Positions 11,339-61,874 of a stretch of DNA of 64,000 bases are shown here, one piece after another (position 1 is the first letter of the stretch; each line of letters begins with the position of its first letter). The notes under the pieces were generated by a model. That model did no database searches, had not been told where the DNA came from, and worked only from the letters and a program-made list of their open reading frames with translations. The position numbers and the translations under genes are program-made. Source of the DNA: Candidatus Poribacteria bacterium (GTDB lineage: Bacteria > Poribacteria > WGA-4E > WGA-3G); assembly GCA_965214095.1 (NCBI GenBank), contig OZ243938.1, positions 768,001 to 832,000 of the forward strand. The letters run 5' to 3'.

Positions 11339-12112
11339 TCACTCAACGAATGAGAGCAGATCAATGAGTAACTTTCTCATTCCTGTGCGGTGAACTATAT
11401 GGTCAATAAATCCATGCGCGACCAATGACTCAGCTTTTTGGAAGTTTTCTGGTAATTCTTCTTGTAAACTCGCAACAGCCAAGGGACCTGCAAACCCGAT
11501 ACGAGCACCAGGCTCAGCAACTATAATGTCACCAAGTGATGTATAACTTGCAGTTGCTCCTCCAAACGTAGGATCTGTGACGATGGAGATATAGAAACCA
11601 CCATTTTTAGCGAATTCAGCACATGCAGCCGCTGTCTTTGCCATCTGCATTAACGCTAATGTGCCTTCTTGCATCCGCATCCCGCCACTCACAGAGACAA
11701 TAACGAGAGGTAAATTATTTTTACCGGCATACTCAATACAACGGGTAACTTTCTCACCAATGACAGCACCACAGGTTCCTCCGATAAAACCGACATCACC
11801 AATCGCAATCGCAGTCGTATTCCCACCGACTTCTGCTATTCCTGAAAGCATCTCGGATCTGAGTCCAGTTTTAGCAATGTCTCGTTCAAGTTTATCAGGG
11901 TATTCAGGGAATTCTAACGCATCTATAGAGTACAAGTTTACGTCTGTTTCTTGGAAACTGTCTTTATCAACAAGTAGGTCCAACCGTTCATGTGCACTCA
12001 TAGGGTAATGTGCATCACATTCAGGGCAAACCTTTAGGTTCTTGGTAAATGCCTTTACTTTGATATCTGCATCGCAATGTCTGCATGTGAAGGATTCGGG
12101 GGTCTTGTCCAT
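11339..12112 (-). CDS. accD: Acetyl-CoA carboxylase carboxyltransferase beta subunit
   Basis: N-terminal CxxC...CxxC zinc finger, SGGMRMQEG, LMQMAKT, AEPGARIGFAG. Confidence 0.9.
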   Translation of the reverse strand: MDKTPESFTCRHCDADIKVKAFTKNLKVCPECDAHYPMSAHERLDLLVDKDSFQETDVNLYSIDALEFPEYPDKLERDIAKTGLRSEMLSGIAEVGGNTTAIAIGDVGFIGGTCGAVIGEKVTRCIEYAGKNNLPLVIVSVSGGMRMQEGTLALMQMAKTAAACAEFAKNGGFYISIVTDPTFGGATASYTSLGDIIVAEPGARIGFAGPLAVASLQEELPENFQKAESLVAHGFIDHIVHRTGMRKLLIDLLSFVE

Positions 12113-12151
12113 GTTATACGCCTAATGATGGTATACAATTCATTCCTTTTA

Positions 12152-12180
12152 ATGATACTCTCAACAGTCGGGTTTGTCAA
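12152..12180 (-). promoter_or_regulatory. sigma70-type promoter of accD
   Basis: Minus strand TTGACA (12180-12175), 17 nt, TATCAT (12157-12152). Confidence 0.6.
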
Positions 12181-12266
12181 CCTAAATATCCCCTTATCCA
12201 ACATCAGAAGTCTGGACAAGAGGATATGAGATAGAAAGAATACCTTAAATTATTCACTTTGTAGAA

Positions 12267-13028
12267 TTATTGAGCAGAAATAGAACCTTTAATTTGTCCC
12301 CACCGTGTAGCAAGTTTCCCTTCAGCCTCTACTGACAAAAACGCATCAAAACCATCACCTAATGCGTTGATCTCATCCTCATTGAGTGCTCGTGAAAGAA
12401 TTACAGCATCATCTATTGCACCACCATATCCTTCACCACCTTCACCACCGAGACGGTAGGTTGTATTAGCACCGCGGGTTTCTTGAAAGTCTGTTTCTTT
12501 CGCCAACTTGCCATTAACATATATCCTGTATTTCTTACCATCACTTTGAACGACAGCATGACTCCACTCACCTTGTTTGATGTCACCACCATCGGTTTGG
12601 CATAGGATAGTCCAACCCCCGACTTGTCCTCGCCATGACAATAGACCTTGTACGGAGTTAACAAAGAGAGTATTATGACCTGCGTCACCCGGTAGACTTC
12701 GCCAGATTTGTTGCCATTCTCCACCCTCAAATGTCGGATTGATCCATACAGAAAGAGTAAATGGGTCTGTCTTGAATAGATCCCCATGCAATGTTTCAGA
12801 TACCGTCATCTCAACGTGTGTACCGACATCAAGATGAATTGCTTCTTTAAATTCTCCATTATCCCAATTTGAACCACCTTTAATCACGCCATGGTTTTCG
12901 TTTCCTGATGAATCTTCTGCATCACCATCAAATGAATAGTATGCGACTAAAGCATCTTCTGCTGAAACACCAGTAATCAAGCACATAAGAAAAGCAGAAC
13001 ATGCCAATACAAATAACGTTCTTTTCAT
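12267..13028 (-). CDS. Secreted LamG/concanavalin A-like domain protein; its RBS is displaced by an IS605-type insertion
   Basis: Signal peptide, LVAYYSFDG...DSSGN, WSHAV, IYVNG, GAIDD, RAL...EI; C-terminal VEAEGKLATRWGQIK. Confidence 0.85.
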   Translation of the reverse strand: MKRTLFVLACSAFLMCLITGVSAEDALVAYYSFDGDAEDSSGNENHGVIKGGSNWDNGEFKEAIHLDVGTHVEMTVSETLHGDLFKTDPFTLSVWINPTFEGGEWQQIWRSLPGDAGHNTLFVNSVQGLLSWRGQVGGWTILCQTDGGDIKQGEWSHAVVQSDGKKYRIYVNGKLAKETDFQETRGANTTYRLGGEGGEGYGGAIDDAVILSRALNEDEINALGDGFDAFLSVEAEGKLATRWGQIKGSISAQ

Positions 13029-13434
13029 CTAATCTTCGGGCAGGAGACCCAATCCTTTAGGTTTGGGAGGAATGCCCGCTCCTATGTTTTTCTTGACAAT
13101 AAATGTCAAACTTGCTAAAATATATTCGGAAAGTTCAATCACACGTAGTCGTGTGTGAGGTTGTCCGCAGTCTTTGGTGCTATATGTTGCGGAGCATAAA
13201 ACTGAAAAACATATACGCTCTCACTACCATAGACACATAACAATTGAGTGGTAGGGACATGGGAGGTAAAAAACCCAGTCCGAAAAACACACTCTCAAAT
13301 AATAAGTTGCTCTTTTAGAGCAAGTGAGGTTGCTTAGAACCCACTGTGGAGACGAAATAAGACGGATGATCCTTTTGGTGAAACGCAACGTCTATGAAGC
13401 ACAAGCCCAACCCTTTAGGTTTGGGTACTATGAC
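13029..13434 (+). mobile_element. Non-autonomous IS200/IS605-family element (no TnpA/TnpB ORF)
   Basis: Left hairpin CCCAATCCTTTAGGTTTGGG (13048-13067) and right hairpin CCCAACCCTTTAGGTTTGGG (13406-13425); guide GAGA at +16..+19 fits left cleavage site TCAT; guide CAAG fits right end TGAC; no target duplication. Confidence 0.85.
13093..13121 (+). promoter_or_regulatory. Near-consensus sigma70 promoter inside the IS605-type element
   Basis: TTGACA (13093-13098), 17 nt, TAAAAT (13116-13121) with extended -10 TG; palindrome TTGACA-N5-TGTCAA overlaps the -35. Confidence 0.7.
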
Positions 13435-13454
13435 CGTATACACTCCTTTTTGAT
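13128..13454 (+). ncRNA. Putative TnpB-type omega-RNA (reRNA) with 3' guide from flanking DNA; boundaries approximate
   Basis: Downstream of promoter; hairpins at 13140-13155, 13164-13193, 13307-13323; 3' signature CTGTGGAGACG...CGTCTATGAAGC + right-end hairpin resembles TnpB element ends; no ORF of 60 aa or more. Confidence 0.55.
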
Positions 13455-13660
13455 CTCATTTTCAATATATTCTGTGAATTTTCGACACTATAGAAACAAT
13501 TAGACACTTTGTGCAAGTTTTTTTCTTTTAGCAATACTATCACACATAAGAAATAATGTCAATTTTGGCAGGTGTCTTCAAATTTTAAGGATTCGTAAAT
13601 ATAGAGGTTAACTTTCTGTTAAGTCCCTGAATCGGTTCATCACTGAATTTATTGGATATA

Positions 13661-13712
13661 TTGATTCTTGTCTGAACCAAGATTTTCAGGATTAGTAGAT
13701 TTATAGGATTAT
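13661..13712 (+). repeat. Dispersed repeat TTGTCTGAAC..GATTTTCAGGATT (family C)
   Basis: Shares TTGATTCTTGTCTGAAC...GATTTTCAGGATTA with 47560-47594 and matches inverted copy at 47688-47713. Confidence 0.7.
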
Positions 13713-13749
13713 GCTTCTGATGTTACAAGGTGGTATTTGAAGATAGACA

Positions 13750-13771
13750 GCACGCGGAGCGTGCCTACTAC
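13750..13771 (-). repeat. GTAG-type REP hairpin
   Basis: Minus strand GTAGTAG-GCACGC-TCC-GCGTGC, just downstream of the hydantoinase gene. Confidence 0.55.
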
Positions 13772-13804
13772 TATGAATGTAAGGTTTACTAAATTTACTA
13801 AAGA

Positions 13805-15877
13805 TTATTGTTGTTGCTGTAATATCAGATTCTCATACGAATCAACATAAGCAGAAAAATTGGGGGGAACGACCGAAGTAGCACTAAATTCGACGATGAC
13901 GGCAGGTCCTGCAATCCGATTGCCGGGTCGCAGTGACTCACGTTGATAAAAATTGGTCGAATATGTTTCACCTTCAAAATCCATGGGGTGTGTAGCAATT
14001 GGTGCATCAGAAAGTTCAACATCTGTCAGTGTATTCGACTTGATTTCTGGTTTATCCGTTTCACCGATTGCTGATAGACGGAGATTCACCACCTCCACCG
14101 ATGCTTCAGGACGCGCATAACTAAATCGCTGTTCGTGTAAGGAATGAAATTGGTTTACAAAATCGGAGTTTTCATTTTCATAACTAACATTTAACTCATA
14201 AGATTGACCTTCATAACGTATATCAAGTGAACGTTTGATTATGAGTTGAGAGAATTCAATATCCTCCATATCCATATCAACTTCGGCAAGTGCAACTAAT
14301 GTTTCAAAACCTTTCTCCAATTGTGTATGTATATCTATGTTGTCAACAGCAATTTTCAATAACACCGTCTGTGAATAATCTTTGACAACATCAGCATATA
14401 ACATGCCGTAAGCAGAAAGAAGACCACCATTCGGTGGTATCAACACATTTTGCATACCGAGGTTTTCCGCAAGAAACGCTGCATGCAAACCACCTGCACC
14501 ACCAAACGAAATGAGTGTAAAATCGCGAGTATCATACCCCCGTTCAACAGAAATCACTTTAATTGCACGTTCCATCGTTGCATTTGCGATTTTCAATATG
14601 CCATCAGCAGTATCACGTGGAGATAATCCCAGGTTTTCAGAAAACTCATGTATATACTGACGCGTCATATCAGATTCAAGCGACATCCTTCCACCTAAAA
14701 ATAGTGTCGGTAAAATACGACCTAAGAATAAATTCGCATCCGTAACAGTTATGTCTTTTCCGTTGTTTCCATAACATATCGGTCCAGGGTCAGCACCGGC
14801 ACTTTCAGGACCAACACGCAACGCACCACCAGAATCTACATAAGCAATTGAACCACCACCAGCACCCACCGTATGAATATCAATAAGAGGTACTTTGATA
14901 GGCAACCCACTGATATTACTTTCGGTTGTCATCGAGATATCACCATCACATAAACTCACATCAGTTGATGTTCCACCCATATCAAAAGTGATAATCTTTT
15001 CATACCCTGCAGTTTTAGCAATATGATATGCACCCATCACGCCTCCTGCAGGACCTGAAAGCACAGTTTGAATTCCAGCAGATTCAAAATTATTCGTTGA
15101 AATACATCCACCATTGGATAGCATCAATTGGAAAAATTGGGGAAAATCATCGGAATTCCTTAGTGTAGAAAGATGTTTTTCTAATGTCGGACGAATATAC
15201 GCGTTGGCAACAGTGGTACTAAATCGCGCATACTCACGATATTCGGGTAAAATTTGGTGAGAACATGAAATCGGTATATTCAAACGATTAGTTAGATATT
15301 CCGAGACAACCAACTCATTAGTAGGATTGATATAGGAAAAGAGAAAACAAATCGCAATTGCATCTAAGTCTAAAGATAAAAGCCGTTTAACCAGATCTTC
15401 AAGATCGGATGTCTTTATTTCAGTCTGAATCTCACCAGTGTGTAATGTCCGTTCAATAATACCGAATCGCAGATCTACAGGCACGAGCGGAGGTGGACGT
15501 TGAACATTTATATCATATAGATGAGGACGCGCCTGTCTACCTATTTCTAAAATATCTTCAAAACCCATTGTCGTAACAACTGCGATCCGTGCACCTCTAC
15601 GTTCCAGCAATGCATTTGTAGCAACGGTAGAACCGTGAACGATATCCACATCTTGATATGAATTGATATTATGCTGACTTAGGATTTCGCTAACACCCTT
15701 AATAACAGCAAGAGCAGGATTTTGAGGTGTCGACAAAACCTTATGTGTGAAGAGATTCTGATTCACAGACATCACAATATCTGTGAAAGTGCCACCGGTA
15801 TCAACACCTATTTTTCTAATTCCATTCTTTTCTTGCATGTGTTGGCTTTTCATTTGGAAGGGGTTGCATACAATCAT
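13805..15877 (-). CDS. Hydantoinase A / 5-oxoprolinase alpha-type subunit
   Basis: GVDTGGTFTD, HGSTVATNALLE, SGPAGG, DMGGTSTD, GAGGGS, VGPESAGADPGP, FGGAGGLH. Confidence 0.92.
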   Translation of the reverse strand: MIVCNPFQMKSQHMQEKNGIRKIGVDTGGTFTDIVMSVNQNLFTHKVLSTPQNPALAVIKGVSEILSQHNINSYQDVDIVHGSTVATNALLERRGARIAVVTTMGFEDILEIGRQARPHLYDINVQRPPPLVPVDLRFGIIERTLHTGEIQTEIKTSDLEDLVKRLLSLDLDAIAICFLFSYINPTNELVVSEYLTNRLNIPISCSHQILPEYREYARFSTTVANAYIRPTLEKHLSTLRNSDDFPQFFQLMLSNGGCISTNNFESAGIQTVLSGPAGGVMGAYHIAKTAGYEKIITFDMGGTSTDVSLCDGDISMTTESNISGLPIKVPLIDIHTVGAGGGSIAYVDSGGALRVGPESAGADPGPICYGNNGKDITVTDANLFLGRILPTLFLGGRMSLESDMTRQYIHEFSENLGLSPRDTADGILKIANATMERAIKVISVERGYDTRDFTLISFGGAGGLHAAFLAENLGMQNVLIPPNGGLLSAYGMLYADVVKDYSQTVLLKIAVDNIDIHTQLEKGFETLVALAEVDMDMEDIEFSQLIIKRSLDIRYEGQSYELNVSYENENSDFVNQFHSLHEQRFSYARPEASVEVVNLRLSAIGETDKPEIKSNTLTDVELSDAPIATHPMDFEGETYSTNFYQRESLRPGNRIAGPAVIVEFSATSVVPPNFSAYVDSYENLILQQQQ

Positions 15878-61043: not shown

Positions 61044-61874
61044 TTACTTAGAAATACGTTGTGACTTAAGTGCACCCCATGTCGTTGTAAATTTATCTTG
61101 GGGTTCAACGCTTGTGGCTTCTTTGATAATATCTGCATATTCAGCAAAATCATCTGCATCAAATGCCGAATTATAGACAATTACTTCATCAATTATGCCA
61201 CCAAAGTAATGGATGTTGGTACCACCACCATCGTCATCATGGAAAACTGCATTTGCATTTGTATGCGCAATACCTGTATCATCACCGTGTGCGAAAAGTT
61301 GTCCACCTGGTTCACTTGCGATCATTTCACCATCAAGCCACATCTCAAACTTATTGTCCTGTACTTCATTGATTGTATCACGTAGTACTAGGGCAACATG
61401 ATACCATCTATCAGACTCAACTTCTGCTGAGGGCCATGCTCCTGCCCATTGGTATTCAGCACGATTCCATGCACCAACATAGACATCTCCATCAAAGACA
61501 TTGATGACAAAACCACGAGTCCGTCCGCCTTCTTCAATAATTGTTTGTTTTTGATCAGTAACATTTACGTCAGTACACTTGAAGAATGCTGCGATTGTGC
61601 GGTTCATGAAAGGTCCGCCAGTGTTCAATCCGTTTGAATCTGGAAGTTTTACACCATCGTCAACACCATCAAACATTAATGCCTTACCAACAATACCATC
61701 AACAACTTCAGGTTCTCCTGCGAGTGTTCCGTTCACACCGTGTTCAGAGGAATCGGCGGCATCACCCTCATCAAAAGTCCAAATAGCTCTTGCGGTTGCT
61801 TCGTCTCTTGCAGCAAATGCTGGTATTGCTATCAATACAAGTAGAATTGTCAAAATTGAGACAAACTTTGTCAT
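61044..61874 (-). CDS. Secreted LamG-domain protein
   Basis: Signal peptide, WTFDEG, GKALMFDG, WYHVA, GIIDEV; C-terminal VEPQDKFTTTWGALK. Confidence 0.88.
   Translation of the reverse strand: MTKFVSILTILLVLIAIPAFAARDEATARAIWTFDEGDAADSSEHGVNGTLAGEPEVVDGIVGKALMFDGVDDGVKLPDSNGLNTGGPFMNRTIAAFFKCTDVNVTDQKQTIIEEGGRTRGFVINVFDGDVYVGAWNRAEYQWAGAWPSAEVESDRWYHVALVLRDTINEVQDNKFEMWLDGEMIASEPGGQLFAHGDDTGIAHTNANAVFHDDDGGGTNIHYFGGIIDEVIVYNSAFDADDFAEYADIIKEATSVEPQDKFTTTWGALKSQRISK

Follow-up and report, generated by a model that had tools for sequence, protein, structure and literature searches.

A protein-free IS200/IS605-type mini element between the ribosome-binding site and the start codon of a LamG gene in a Poribacteria genome, and the start-codon insertions of its family

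What is a segment of 406 bp without a protein gene doing between the Shine-Dalgarno (SD) sequence of a gene and its ATG? The case lies in a window (the whole stretch of DNA that was analysed, 64,000 nucleotides (nt), positions 768,001 to 832,000 of contig OZ243938.1, assembly GCA_965214095.1) from a Candidatus Poribacteria bacterium whose genome we label G000; G006, G021, G051 and G058 denote related genomes. The segment, at window positions 13029-13434, is a recent and well-defined insertion of a non-autonomous IS200/IS605-type mini element in the ATGA-targeting IS605/ISC group, similar to the palindrome-associated transposable elements (PATEs), a term reportedly owed to Dyall-Smith in 2011. 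Taken as a whole, the locus is best explained, at a probability that we put at roughly 0.8, by a mini element that is mobilised in trans, addressed by guides to TCAT (the complement of ATGA, and so to many start codons) and equipped with an RNA cargo, and that has most likely left a LamG gene silenced but intact.

The element and its insertions at start codons

The features on which the argument turns are as follows.

12267..13028, minus strand: gene interrupted at its start, coding for a 253-amino-acid Laminin_G_3 protein with a signal-peptide-like N-terminus; open reading frame (ORF) intact
13024..13028, plus strand: target motif TTCAT (TCAT at 13025-13028), the complement of ATGAA, that is, of the LamG start codon and two further bases
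13029..13434, top strand on plus: mini element, 406 bp, with four copies in the genome, exact empty sites, no ORF above 59 amino acids and no Rfam match
13443..13448, minus strand: Shine-Dalgarno AAGGAG of the LamG gene (CTCCTT on the plus strand), 8 nt past the right end of the element

A first-pass annotation of this DNA had described a protein-free IS605-type element inserted without a scar between the ribosome-binding site (RBS) and the ATG, had predicted an empty site at orthologous loci, and had argued that removal of the element would restore an SD with 8-nt spacing; coordinates, junctions and prediction all hold. In G021, the closest relative (LamG gene 94% identical), TTCAT is joined directly to the same right flank (CGTATACACTCCTTTTT from 13435 onward), and a 3321-nt contig of sequencing run X5, from another population, joins 13028 to 13435, minus the 406 nt. 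The four sponge-associated runs, which include X1, X5 and the RNA run X18, were examined as assembled contigs, which drop rare variants. Because of the empty sites in G021 and in the X5 contig, the boundaries are exact and there is no target duplication; an empty site for another copy, A3, was found in G051. The LamG ATG is the complement of 13026-13028, and AAGGAG stands 414 nt from it in the occupied site vs 8 nt in the empty one, the arrangement present in G021; the gene near 61874 that had been chosen for comparison has AAGGAG, 9 nt and an ATG on the minus strand. The longest ORF within the element is 59 amino acids, and comparison of 12000-15000 with Rfam, allowing E values as high as 1, gave no match. 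A tnpB coding remnant inside the element was considered and rejected (tblastn with 15 TnpB proteins, best E 0.29).

Four full copies of the element are present in the genome, each of 405-406 bp, with pairwise identities of 97.4-99.3%, along with one truncated left end and many diverged ends. YTCAT lies directly 5' of all four, and all four split an SD-like motif from the ATG of a long ORF, the SD lying 6-8 nt upstream once the flanks are rejoined. Chance would hardly yield this, given that start codons account for 2.7% of the 55,051 TCAT sites in the genome.

Copy A1 (the copy at the LamG start): LamG, 253 amino acids
Copy A2: VIT-vWA, 735 amino acids
Copy A3: ECF sigma fusion, 996 amino acids
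Copy A4: WD40, 704 amino acids

The Pfam domains of the four interrupted genes start near their N-termini. When an insertion is called start-like if an ORF of at least 98 amino acids opens from the junction ATG, seven of the 11 TCAT-type insertions in the genome are start-like (A1-A4, a 1386-bp element, and the insertions C1 and C5).

The same pattern extends across the family. A 100-nt query from the left end matched 82 of the 112 genomes of the family; 150 matches were listed and 285 further ones lay outside the sample. Six of the 150 fell in the genome itself, 27, which lay near a contig start, were excluded with their flanks unseen, and 117 were fetched. Among these listed matches, the 117 left ends have 115 distinct left flanks, 94 of them of TCAT type, and the junction ATG opens an ORF of at least 100 amino acids at 53 of the 94 distinct TCAT sites; junction ORF lengths are bimodal, being either at most 45 or at least 98 amino acids, with one at 67. 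Right ends were located for 90/117, and 74 distinct TCAT sites with both ends could be classified: among the matches listed, they comprise 42 start-like sites, 24 that are intergenic or unclear and 8 within genes. At 36 of the 42 start-like sites the junction is preceded by fewer than 40 open codons. An SD-like motif is present at 27/42 start-like sites vs 2/32 of the others, the null rates being 69% at gene starts and 9% in intergenic sequence. The proposal that insertions at ATG-A (TCAT being the reverse complement of ATGA, as had been pointed out) part the RBS from the start codon is thus borne out family-wide, at 42/74 distinct sites, as is the enrichment over all TCAT sites that it implied (42/74 vs 2.7-4.7%). 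By size, the start-like insertions divide as follows.

Mini elements (below 700 bp): start-like 11 of 14
IsrB-type elements (1250-1299 bp): start-like 14 of 23
TnpB-type elements (1350-1500 bp): start-like 14 of 32
Other size classes: start-like 3 of 5

In a set of 12 loci from relatives, which partly overlaps the 74-site sample, nine were start-like. Among relatives of TCAC type (n = 18), GTG opens an ORF of at least 100 amino acids in 4/18 vs a null of 12.2% (p 0.17).

Some start codons are occupied in more than one genome. At the start of the ECF-sigma fusion gene (95% identical between the two genomes), G058 (loci L057/L172) carries a 1386-bp TnpB element and G000 the 406-bp mini element A3, and at the site of A4, G058 carries a mini element 97.3% identical to it within flanks that are only 85-94% identical. 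Either these start codons have been occupied repeatedly or the elements have turned over. The ECF-sigma fusion genes form a tandem family, with at least four copies within 25 kb (G000:C1:3255813-3280039) and several in most relatives. The idea of this gene start as a cross-genus hot spot was dropped, the gene belonging to a multi-copy paralogous family in which 2 of the best 30 loci are occupied, which leaves the G000/G058 pair as the one case of note.

How the element would find such sites can be read from its two ends.

13038..13077, plus strand: left-end fold-back, with outer stem 13038-13042 pairing with 13073-13077, inner hairpin 13048-13067, and GAGA at 13044-13047 in the internal loop
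13402..13434, plus strand: right end, with guide CAAG at 13402-13405, hairpin 13406-13425 and cleavage motif TGAC at 13431-13434

The left end consists of 19 nt followed by a hairpin, with the guide GAGA immediately 5' of it, and the right end of CAAG, a hairpin and 9 nt closing in TGAC. Both ends thus have subterminal imperfect hairpins, without terminal inverted repeats, and compensatory changes preserve these hairpins in relatives. In IS608, target bases 1, 2 and 4 pair with guide bases 2, 1 and 4, respectively. This rule, which the first-pass annotation had applied to both ends (GAGA with TCAT, CAAG with TGAC), fits them and every other subfamily of the genome as well; among the matches listed, it is obeyed by 104/117 left ends from 81 related genomes, with position 4 covarying between A/T and G/C, and TCAT precedes 96/117. 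The left ends pair as follows.

Guide GAGA with target TCAT: 74 of 117 left ends
Guide GAAA with target TCAT: 15 of 117
Guide GAAG with target TCAC: 13 of 117
Guide AAAG with target TCAC: 2 of 117
Other guide-target pairs: 13 of 117

Right ends pair CAAG with TGAC in the mini-element family and CAAT with TGAA in two further families, the one called B and the autonomous one described below. GAGA would accordingly select TCAT, preferably YTCAT, as the target, and CAAG would select the right cleavage site TGAC.

Variants of these ends occur. In copies A3 (G000:C1:3279134-3279539) and A4 (G000:C1:959174-959579), and also in L053 and L135, the internal loop has had one of its arms altered into the exact complement of the other: in A3 the 3' arm of the left fold-back is changed to TCTCCT, and in A4 the 5' arm is changed to ATTCCT, which abolishes the guide GAGA. 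This rewriting looks like the template-switch "correction" of a quasi-palindrome, and because its guide is destroyed, the left end of A4 should be immobilised. Copy C4 (G000:C1:1931295) sits after TCCT rather than TCAT, still within the TCxT that the guide allows; it is flanked by CTCCT on both sides, 5 nt ahead of an ATG, and the insertion thus lies inside an SD-like run.

Proteins that could act on such ends in trans are encoded elsewhere in the genome. Four intact genes code for a TnpA of 138 amino acids that matches IS608 TnpA (E 3e-34) and aligns with it at the H-x-H motif and at the C-terminal Y. The autonomous tnpA-tnpB element pairs GAAG with TCAC and CAAT with TGAA, and its hairpins are styled like those of the mini element. 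We suppose, from knowledge of the family, that the mini element would be moved by this IS608-like Y1 TnpA binding both subterminal hairpins; it is the likeness of the hairpins that suggests such mobilisation of TCAT-type ends. The expectation of a tnpA with matching ends was thus answered in part, by an IS608-like tnpA in four copies with similar hairpins whose own pair is GAAG/TCAC. TnpB zinc-ribbon matches number 22 in the genome, and the TnpB (373 amino acids) of the 1386-bp relative matches ISDra2 TnpB (E 4e-38) and keeps D, E and D in three RuvC motif stretches. A 1266-bp family in four copies (G000:C1:172740-174005, which is C1, and three more) pairs GAGA with TCAT (or TCCT) and CAAG with TGAC; it codes (e.g., L025 293-1558) for an IsrB-like protein (RRXRR E 1.5e-34; IsrB 8DMB E 3.7e-38), whose gene runs on the bottom strand from the right end to the left end and is co-oriented with the host gene. 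Copy C1 lies between the SD motif and the ATG of a 286-amino-acid ORF, and because it is co-oriented behind the host SD, the host promoter would transcribe its guide RNA.

Family B is a second protein-free mini family, of 332-335 bp and five copies (G000:C1:915518-915852 and four more), which has the pairs of the autonomous tnpA-tnpB element (GAAG/TCAC, CAAT/TGAA) and lies away from real gene starts. Contig C2 of G000 (32,066 bases) has a G+C content of 64% vs 41% in the main contig and may be foreign to the genome bin.

Possible causes of the start-codon excess

How far the excess at start codons exceeds what the target motif would produce by itself depends on the null. All nulls come from G000, in which genes were called crudely (3945 ORFs, 87% coding).

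All 55,051 TCAT sites: start share 1,498, or 2.7%
TCAT outside genes: 17.6%
TTCAT outside genes: 25.8%
TTTCAT outside genes: 34%
TTTTCAT outside genes: 45%
Null weighted to match the flanking bases that 40 non-start insertions prefer: about 20%
All sites, scored by the operational rule used on the insertions: 4.7%
Non-genic sites, scored by that operational rule: 27.6%

The observed start share is 36/74 (p 6e-28) or 36/60 (p 1.6e-7), and 42/66 compared with 17.6-25.8% gives p 1e-16 to 1e-10. Most of the enrichment can be traced to a target that is complementary to ATGA, together with the loss of intragenic insertions: a large share of the tolerated TCAT targets would be start codons on the other strand, so that the element would land antisense between RBS and ATG, and insertions within genes would mostly be purged. 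There remains a residual start-codon excess of 2- to 3.6-fold, which is explained neither by 3' flank preference nor by predicted accessibility. An extended 3' target was rejected, the right flanks of 32 non-start insertions having no C-rich or other preference, and because the SD-like rate at these sites (2/32) equals the 9% intergenic null, the CTCC of the RBS is not a target signal. Along the 5.2-Mb contig, cumulative GC skew is noisy and marks no clear origin or terminus.

The whole excess might come from a YTCAT (perhaps TTTCAT-like) target and intragenic loss, the residual being an artefact of the null. Intragenic sites make up 85% of TCAT sites vs 8/74 insertions, T is enriched at -5 and -6, the expectation rises to 34-45% for TTTCAT/TTTTCAT, and the gene calls are crude. 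However, the flank-weighted expectation is only about 20%, as compared to 42/66 or 36/60 (p 1.6e-7 down to 1.4e-16), and splitting an SD from its ATG should itself be costly, so that such sites should not be favoured over other intergenic ones. We regard motif and purifying selection as the entire cause as possible, though on balance not likely.

A different source of the residual would be single-strand accessibility, if weakly structured start regions made TCAT easier for the transposase to capture. Gene starts in the null do fold less stably than intergenic sites (mean -9.6 vs -11.8 kcal/mol over 80 nt), but the unpaired probability of the 5-nt target is 0.56 at null starts vs 0.55 at null intergenic sites (p 0.42), a crude measure computed with RNA rather than DNA parameters; at the insertions themselves it is 0.54 for start and 0.65 for non-start sites. 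Accessibility is thus an improbable explanation.

Alternatively, one could envision selection at the level of the element for a site at the end of a 5' untranslated region (UTR). IsrB and IscB elements would need transcription from outside, and an ATGA target would place them in sense behind a host promoter; TnpB-type and mini members, which share ends and target, may gain a guide in the conserved, hard-to-mutate RBS. The IsrB-like gene of the 1266-bp family is co-oriented with the host gene, and 14/23 insertions of its size class lie at starts; further, the part of the preprint by Meers et al. available to us (PMC10055086) describes IscB elements that match the orientation of the upstream gene, one of them with TTCAT as its transposon-adjacent motif (TAM). 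Nevertheless, mini (11/14) and TnpB-type (14/32) members, which have an internal promoter and are read antisense, are enriched as well, and we hold this explanation to be unlikely, if within reason.

One could also suppose that the host population benefits, using insertion by TnpA and scarless excision as phase variation of surface or secreted proteins, which would make the element the adaptive and reversible off switch that had been suggested for the LamG gene. Excision in the IS200/IS605 family is scarless; the empty sites in G021, X5 and G051 are exact and the interrupted ORFs intact; the same start codon is occupied by another family member in a sister species; and three of the four genes hit in the genome (LamG, VIT-vWA and WD40) have signal- or membrane-anchor-like N-termini. 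However, a mixed occupied and empty state was not seen in any one population in the contigs, one hit gene is an ECF sigma-factor fusion, and signal- or membrane-anchor-like N-termini are no commoner among hit genes (21/54) than among other ATGA-start genes (482/1498; p 0.30). Explanations at the level of the element suffice, and a regulated switch, in our estimation improbable, is unlikely to be needed.

The predicted RNA inside the element and the gene behind it

The interior of the element and the adjoining DNA contain four further features.

13093..13121, plus strand: promoter-like site, TTGACA-17 nt-TAAAAT with TG before the second hexamer, directed toward the right end; 11/12 match
13126..13450, plus strand: predicted structured RNA of about 300 nt, omega-RNA-like; transcript, ends and guide putative
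13307..13323, minus strand: terminator-like hairpin and T-run inside the element on the LamG sense strand, the complement of a covarying RNA hairpin; function putative
13534..13562, minus strand: promoter-like site, TTGACA-17 nt-TAGTAT, possibly the native LamG promoter, matching the consensus at only 10/12

To judge from comparison of its relatives, the mini element is not a bare shell: it has a conserved promoter-like site and an omega-RNA-like structured RNA. Both hexamers are readable in six of seven related mini elements (387-406 bp, from seven species) and poor in G006; mean column identity over nine aligned sequences is 61%. Over the stretch between the presumed start and the right end, 58 pairs are predicted by RNAalifold, and in 26 of these both sides have changed. 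Paired cells reach 92.8% vs 80.5% in shuffles, none of 500 shuffles attains the observed covariation, and slid controls give 27-47%, in a test that uses seven sequences and a structure derived from the same seven. The RNA is placed on the top strand because of the many G-U pairs there. Element positions 300-406 are 77-83% identical to a stretch of five tnpB elements that opens some 30 nt ahead of the tnpB stop codon and closes at the right end, and further alignment extends the match to about 115 nt, beginning some 40 nt ahead of that stop codon. An inert decay product, a deletion remnant whose function is limited to its ends, would account for the absent protein gene and for a middle of 220 nt unlike tnpB; yet seven homologues share 58 base pairs, 26 of them compensatory, and six retain the promoter hexamers, which makes inertness very improbable.

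By analogy with the omega-RNAs of TnpB, the RNA would run out through the right end, and the host RBS region would serve as its guide, the presumed guide being about 16 flank bases (13435-13450) complementary to that region. A TnpB supplied in trans could then cut the empty site (TTCAT and the RBS region) after excision, favouring retention of the element.

For the LamG gene, the predicted fold of the occupied 5' region has -24.6 kcal/mol and puts the left-end fold-back 9 nt ahead of the AUG, whereas that of the empty homologue is almost unstructured (centroid -3.4 kcal/mol). Because the SD is displaced by 406 nt, a stable fold-back would form 9 nt before the AUG, and a terminator-like hairpin, which faces the putative native promoter, and convergent antisense transcription from the element's promoter would intervene between the two, the gene has most likely been silenced with its ORF unharmed, and scarless excision would bring it back. 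In the contigs of RNA run X18, one of 100 nt lies on 13247-13291 and one LamG contig comes from a diverged strain; neither shows transcription of A1. Upstream, between the LamG and hydantoinase genes, a repeat of about 130 bp (13583-13713) matches other parts of the genome at 86-88% and has many short matches in relatives. In all four runs the summed contig depth is very high at 13640-13706, and the repeat is probably one more abundant sequence similar to miniature inverted-repeat transposable elements.

Several points weigh against the account of a trans-mobilised, guide-addressed mini element with an RNA cargo. The null derives from crude gene calls in one genome, the expectation from selection alone is 34% for TTTCAT or 45% for TTTTCAT, and part of the excess could be target preference under-estimated from the 40 non-start sites; the related genomes are not independent, though distinct sites were counted. 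Thirteen of the 117 guide-target pairs fall outside the rule, and in the tnpA element itself the ends pair guide GAAG with TCAC in place of TCAT. Homology of the RNA to tnpB-linked sequence is confined to roughly its last 107-115 nt, and because the 5' two thirds are unrelated to tnpB, we only infer that TnpB may use the RNA of the mini element. Lastly, the first-pass annotation had proposed a search for empty and circle junctions; the empty joint was found in the X5 contig, from another population, but the contigs of run X1, in which rare variants are dropped, show the occupied form and neither junction.

Known relatives and what the insertions mean

Among characterised systems, IS608 of Helicobacter pylori (TnpA structures 2VHG and 2A6M) is alike in its Y1 HUH transposase, its hairpins, the absence of terminal inverted repeats and of target duplication, its insertion 3' of a 4-5-nt motif, and the 4-nt guides 5' of each hairpin that set target and cleavage site. 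In contrast, the Poribacteria elements target TCAT rather than TTAC, the copy studied here has neither tnpA nor tnpB, and its left guide lies in the internal loop of a longer fold-back. IStrons, in which an IS605-like element is fused to a group I intron, self-splice from mRNA; they too are of IS200/IS605 type, land in genes at a short motif and limit harm to the host. Nothing suggests splicing here, where the ORF is spared because the element lands just before it.

The target itself is not new. In the parts of their paper that we consulted, Kapitonov, Makarova and Koonin (2016, PMC4810608) give N|ATGA as the target of ISC and IS605B elements, among them ISC1-1_MA and IS605B-1_MA of Microcystis and others in Halomonas and Marinobacter, and describe ends common to IscB-type and TnpB-type elements, with genes on opposite strands and no target duplication. 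This is the same target read on the other strand, and the terminus 5'-GTCA is the complement of the TGAC found here; unlike those elements, the Poribacteria members comprise IsrB-type, TnpB-type and protein-free ones, and their link to real start codons has been counted. The main text of PMC4810608 does not contain the terms "start codon", "initiation codon" or "translation", though its supplementary Figs S4-S6 may show gene context. The proposal that the start codon is the target motif stands as regards the insertions; the N|ATGA target had already been published.

According to the sections consulted of Meers et al. (2023 preprint, PMC10055086), many PATEs, those of Geobacillus stearothermophilus among them, code for omega-RNAs that are used in trans. 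PATEs resemble the mini element as protein-free IS200/IS605 derivatives with both ends, presumed mobilisation in trans and an omega-RNA-like RNA that needs TnpB in trans. Unlike what those sections describe for PATEs, the mini element has its own conserved promoter and an RNA whose 5' two thirds are unrelated to tnpB, and it shares in a start-codon bias of which they make no mention. The same sections report TTCAT as the TAM of ISGst5, an IscB element of G. stearothermophilus, where IscB elements follow the orientation of the upstream gene. The pentanucleotide is identical, but ISGst5 belongs to a different phylum and its nuclease is an IscB with an HNH domain, and the sections seen do not mention start codons. 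Our literature search, which did not reach into supplements, found no published description of start-codon-biased IS200/IS605 insertion.

The element type, the guide rule and the N|ATGA target are thus already known; new here is a tally by which the target amounts, in practice, to the start codon. In Poribacteria, around half of the family's distinct insertions separate an RBS from its ATG without breaking the ORF, and the start share is 10-20 times that among all TCAT sites and 2-3.6 times the share for which intragenic loss would account. This finding bears on why OMEGA transposons have the TAMs that they have, on how IsrB and IscB elements gain transcription from outside, and on the extent of gene silencing by such elements in symbiont genomes; the same analysis can be applied to the published ATGA/TTCAT families of Microcystis and Geobacillus. 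It also suggests that caution is necessary in annotation, where a gene may be silent, though intact, if an element of this kind occupies its ATG. A more far-reaching idea, which we consider doubtful, is that the TTCAT/ATGA target is an adaptation for landing on translation starts: IsrB and IscB elements would capture the host promoter and 5' UTR, transcribing a guide that is the host RBS region, TnpB-type and mini members would use the same address, and every member would be a gene-specific, scarless and reversible silencer. If true, hundreds of genes in sponge symbionts would lie under an on/off layer that is run by transposons and addressed to start codons.

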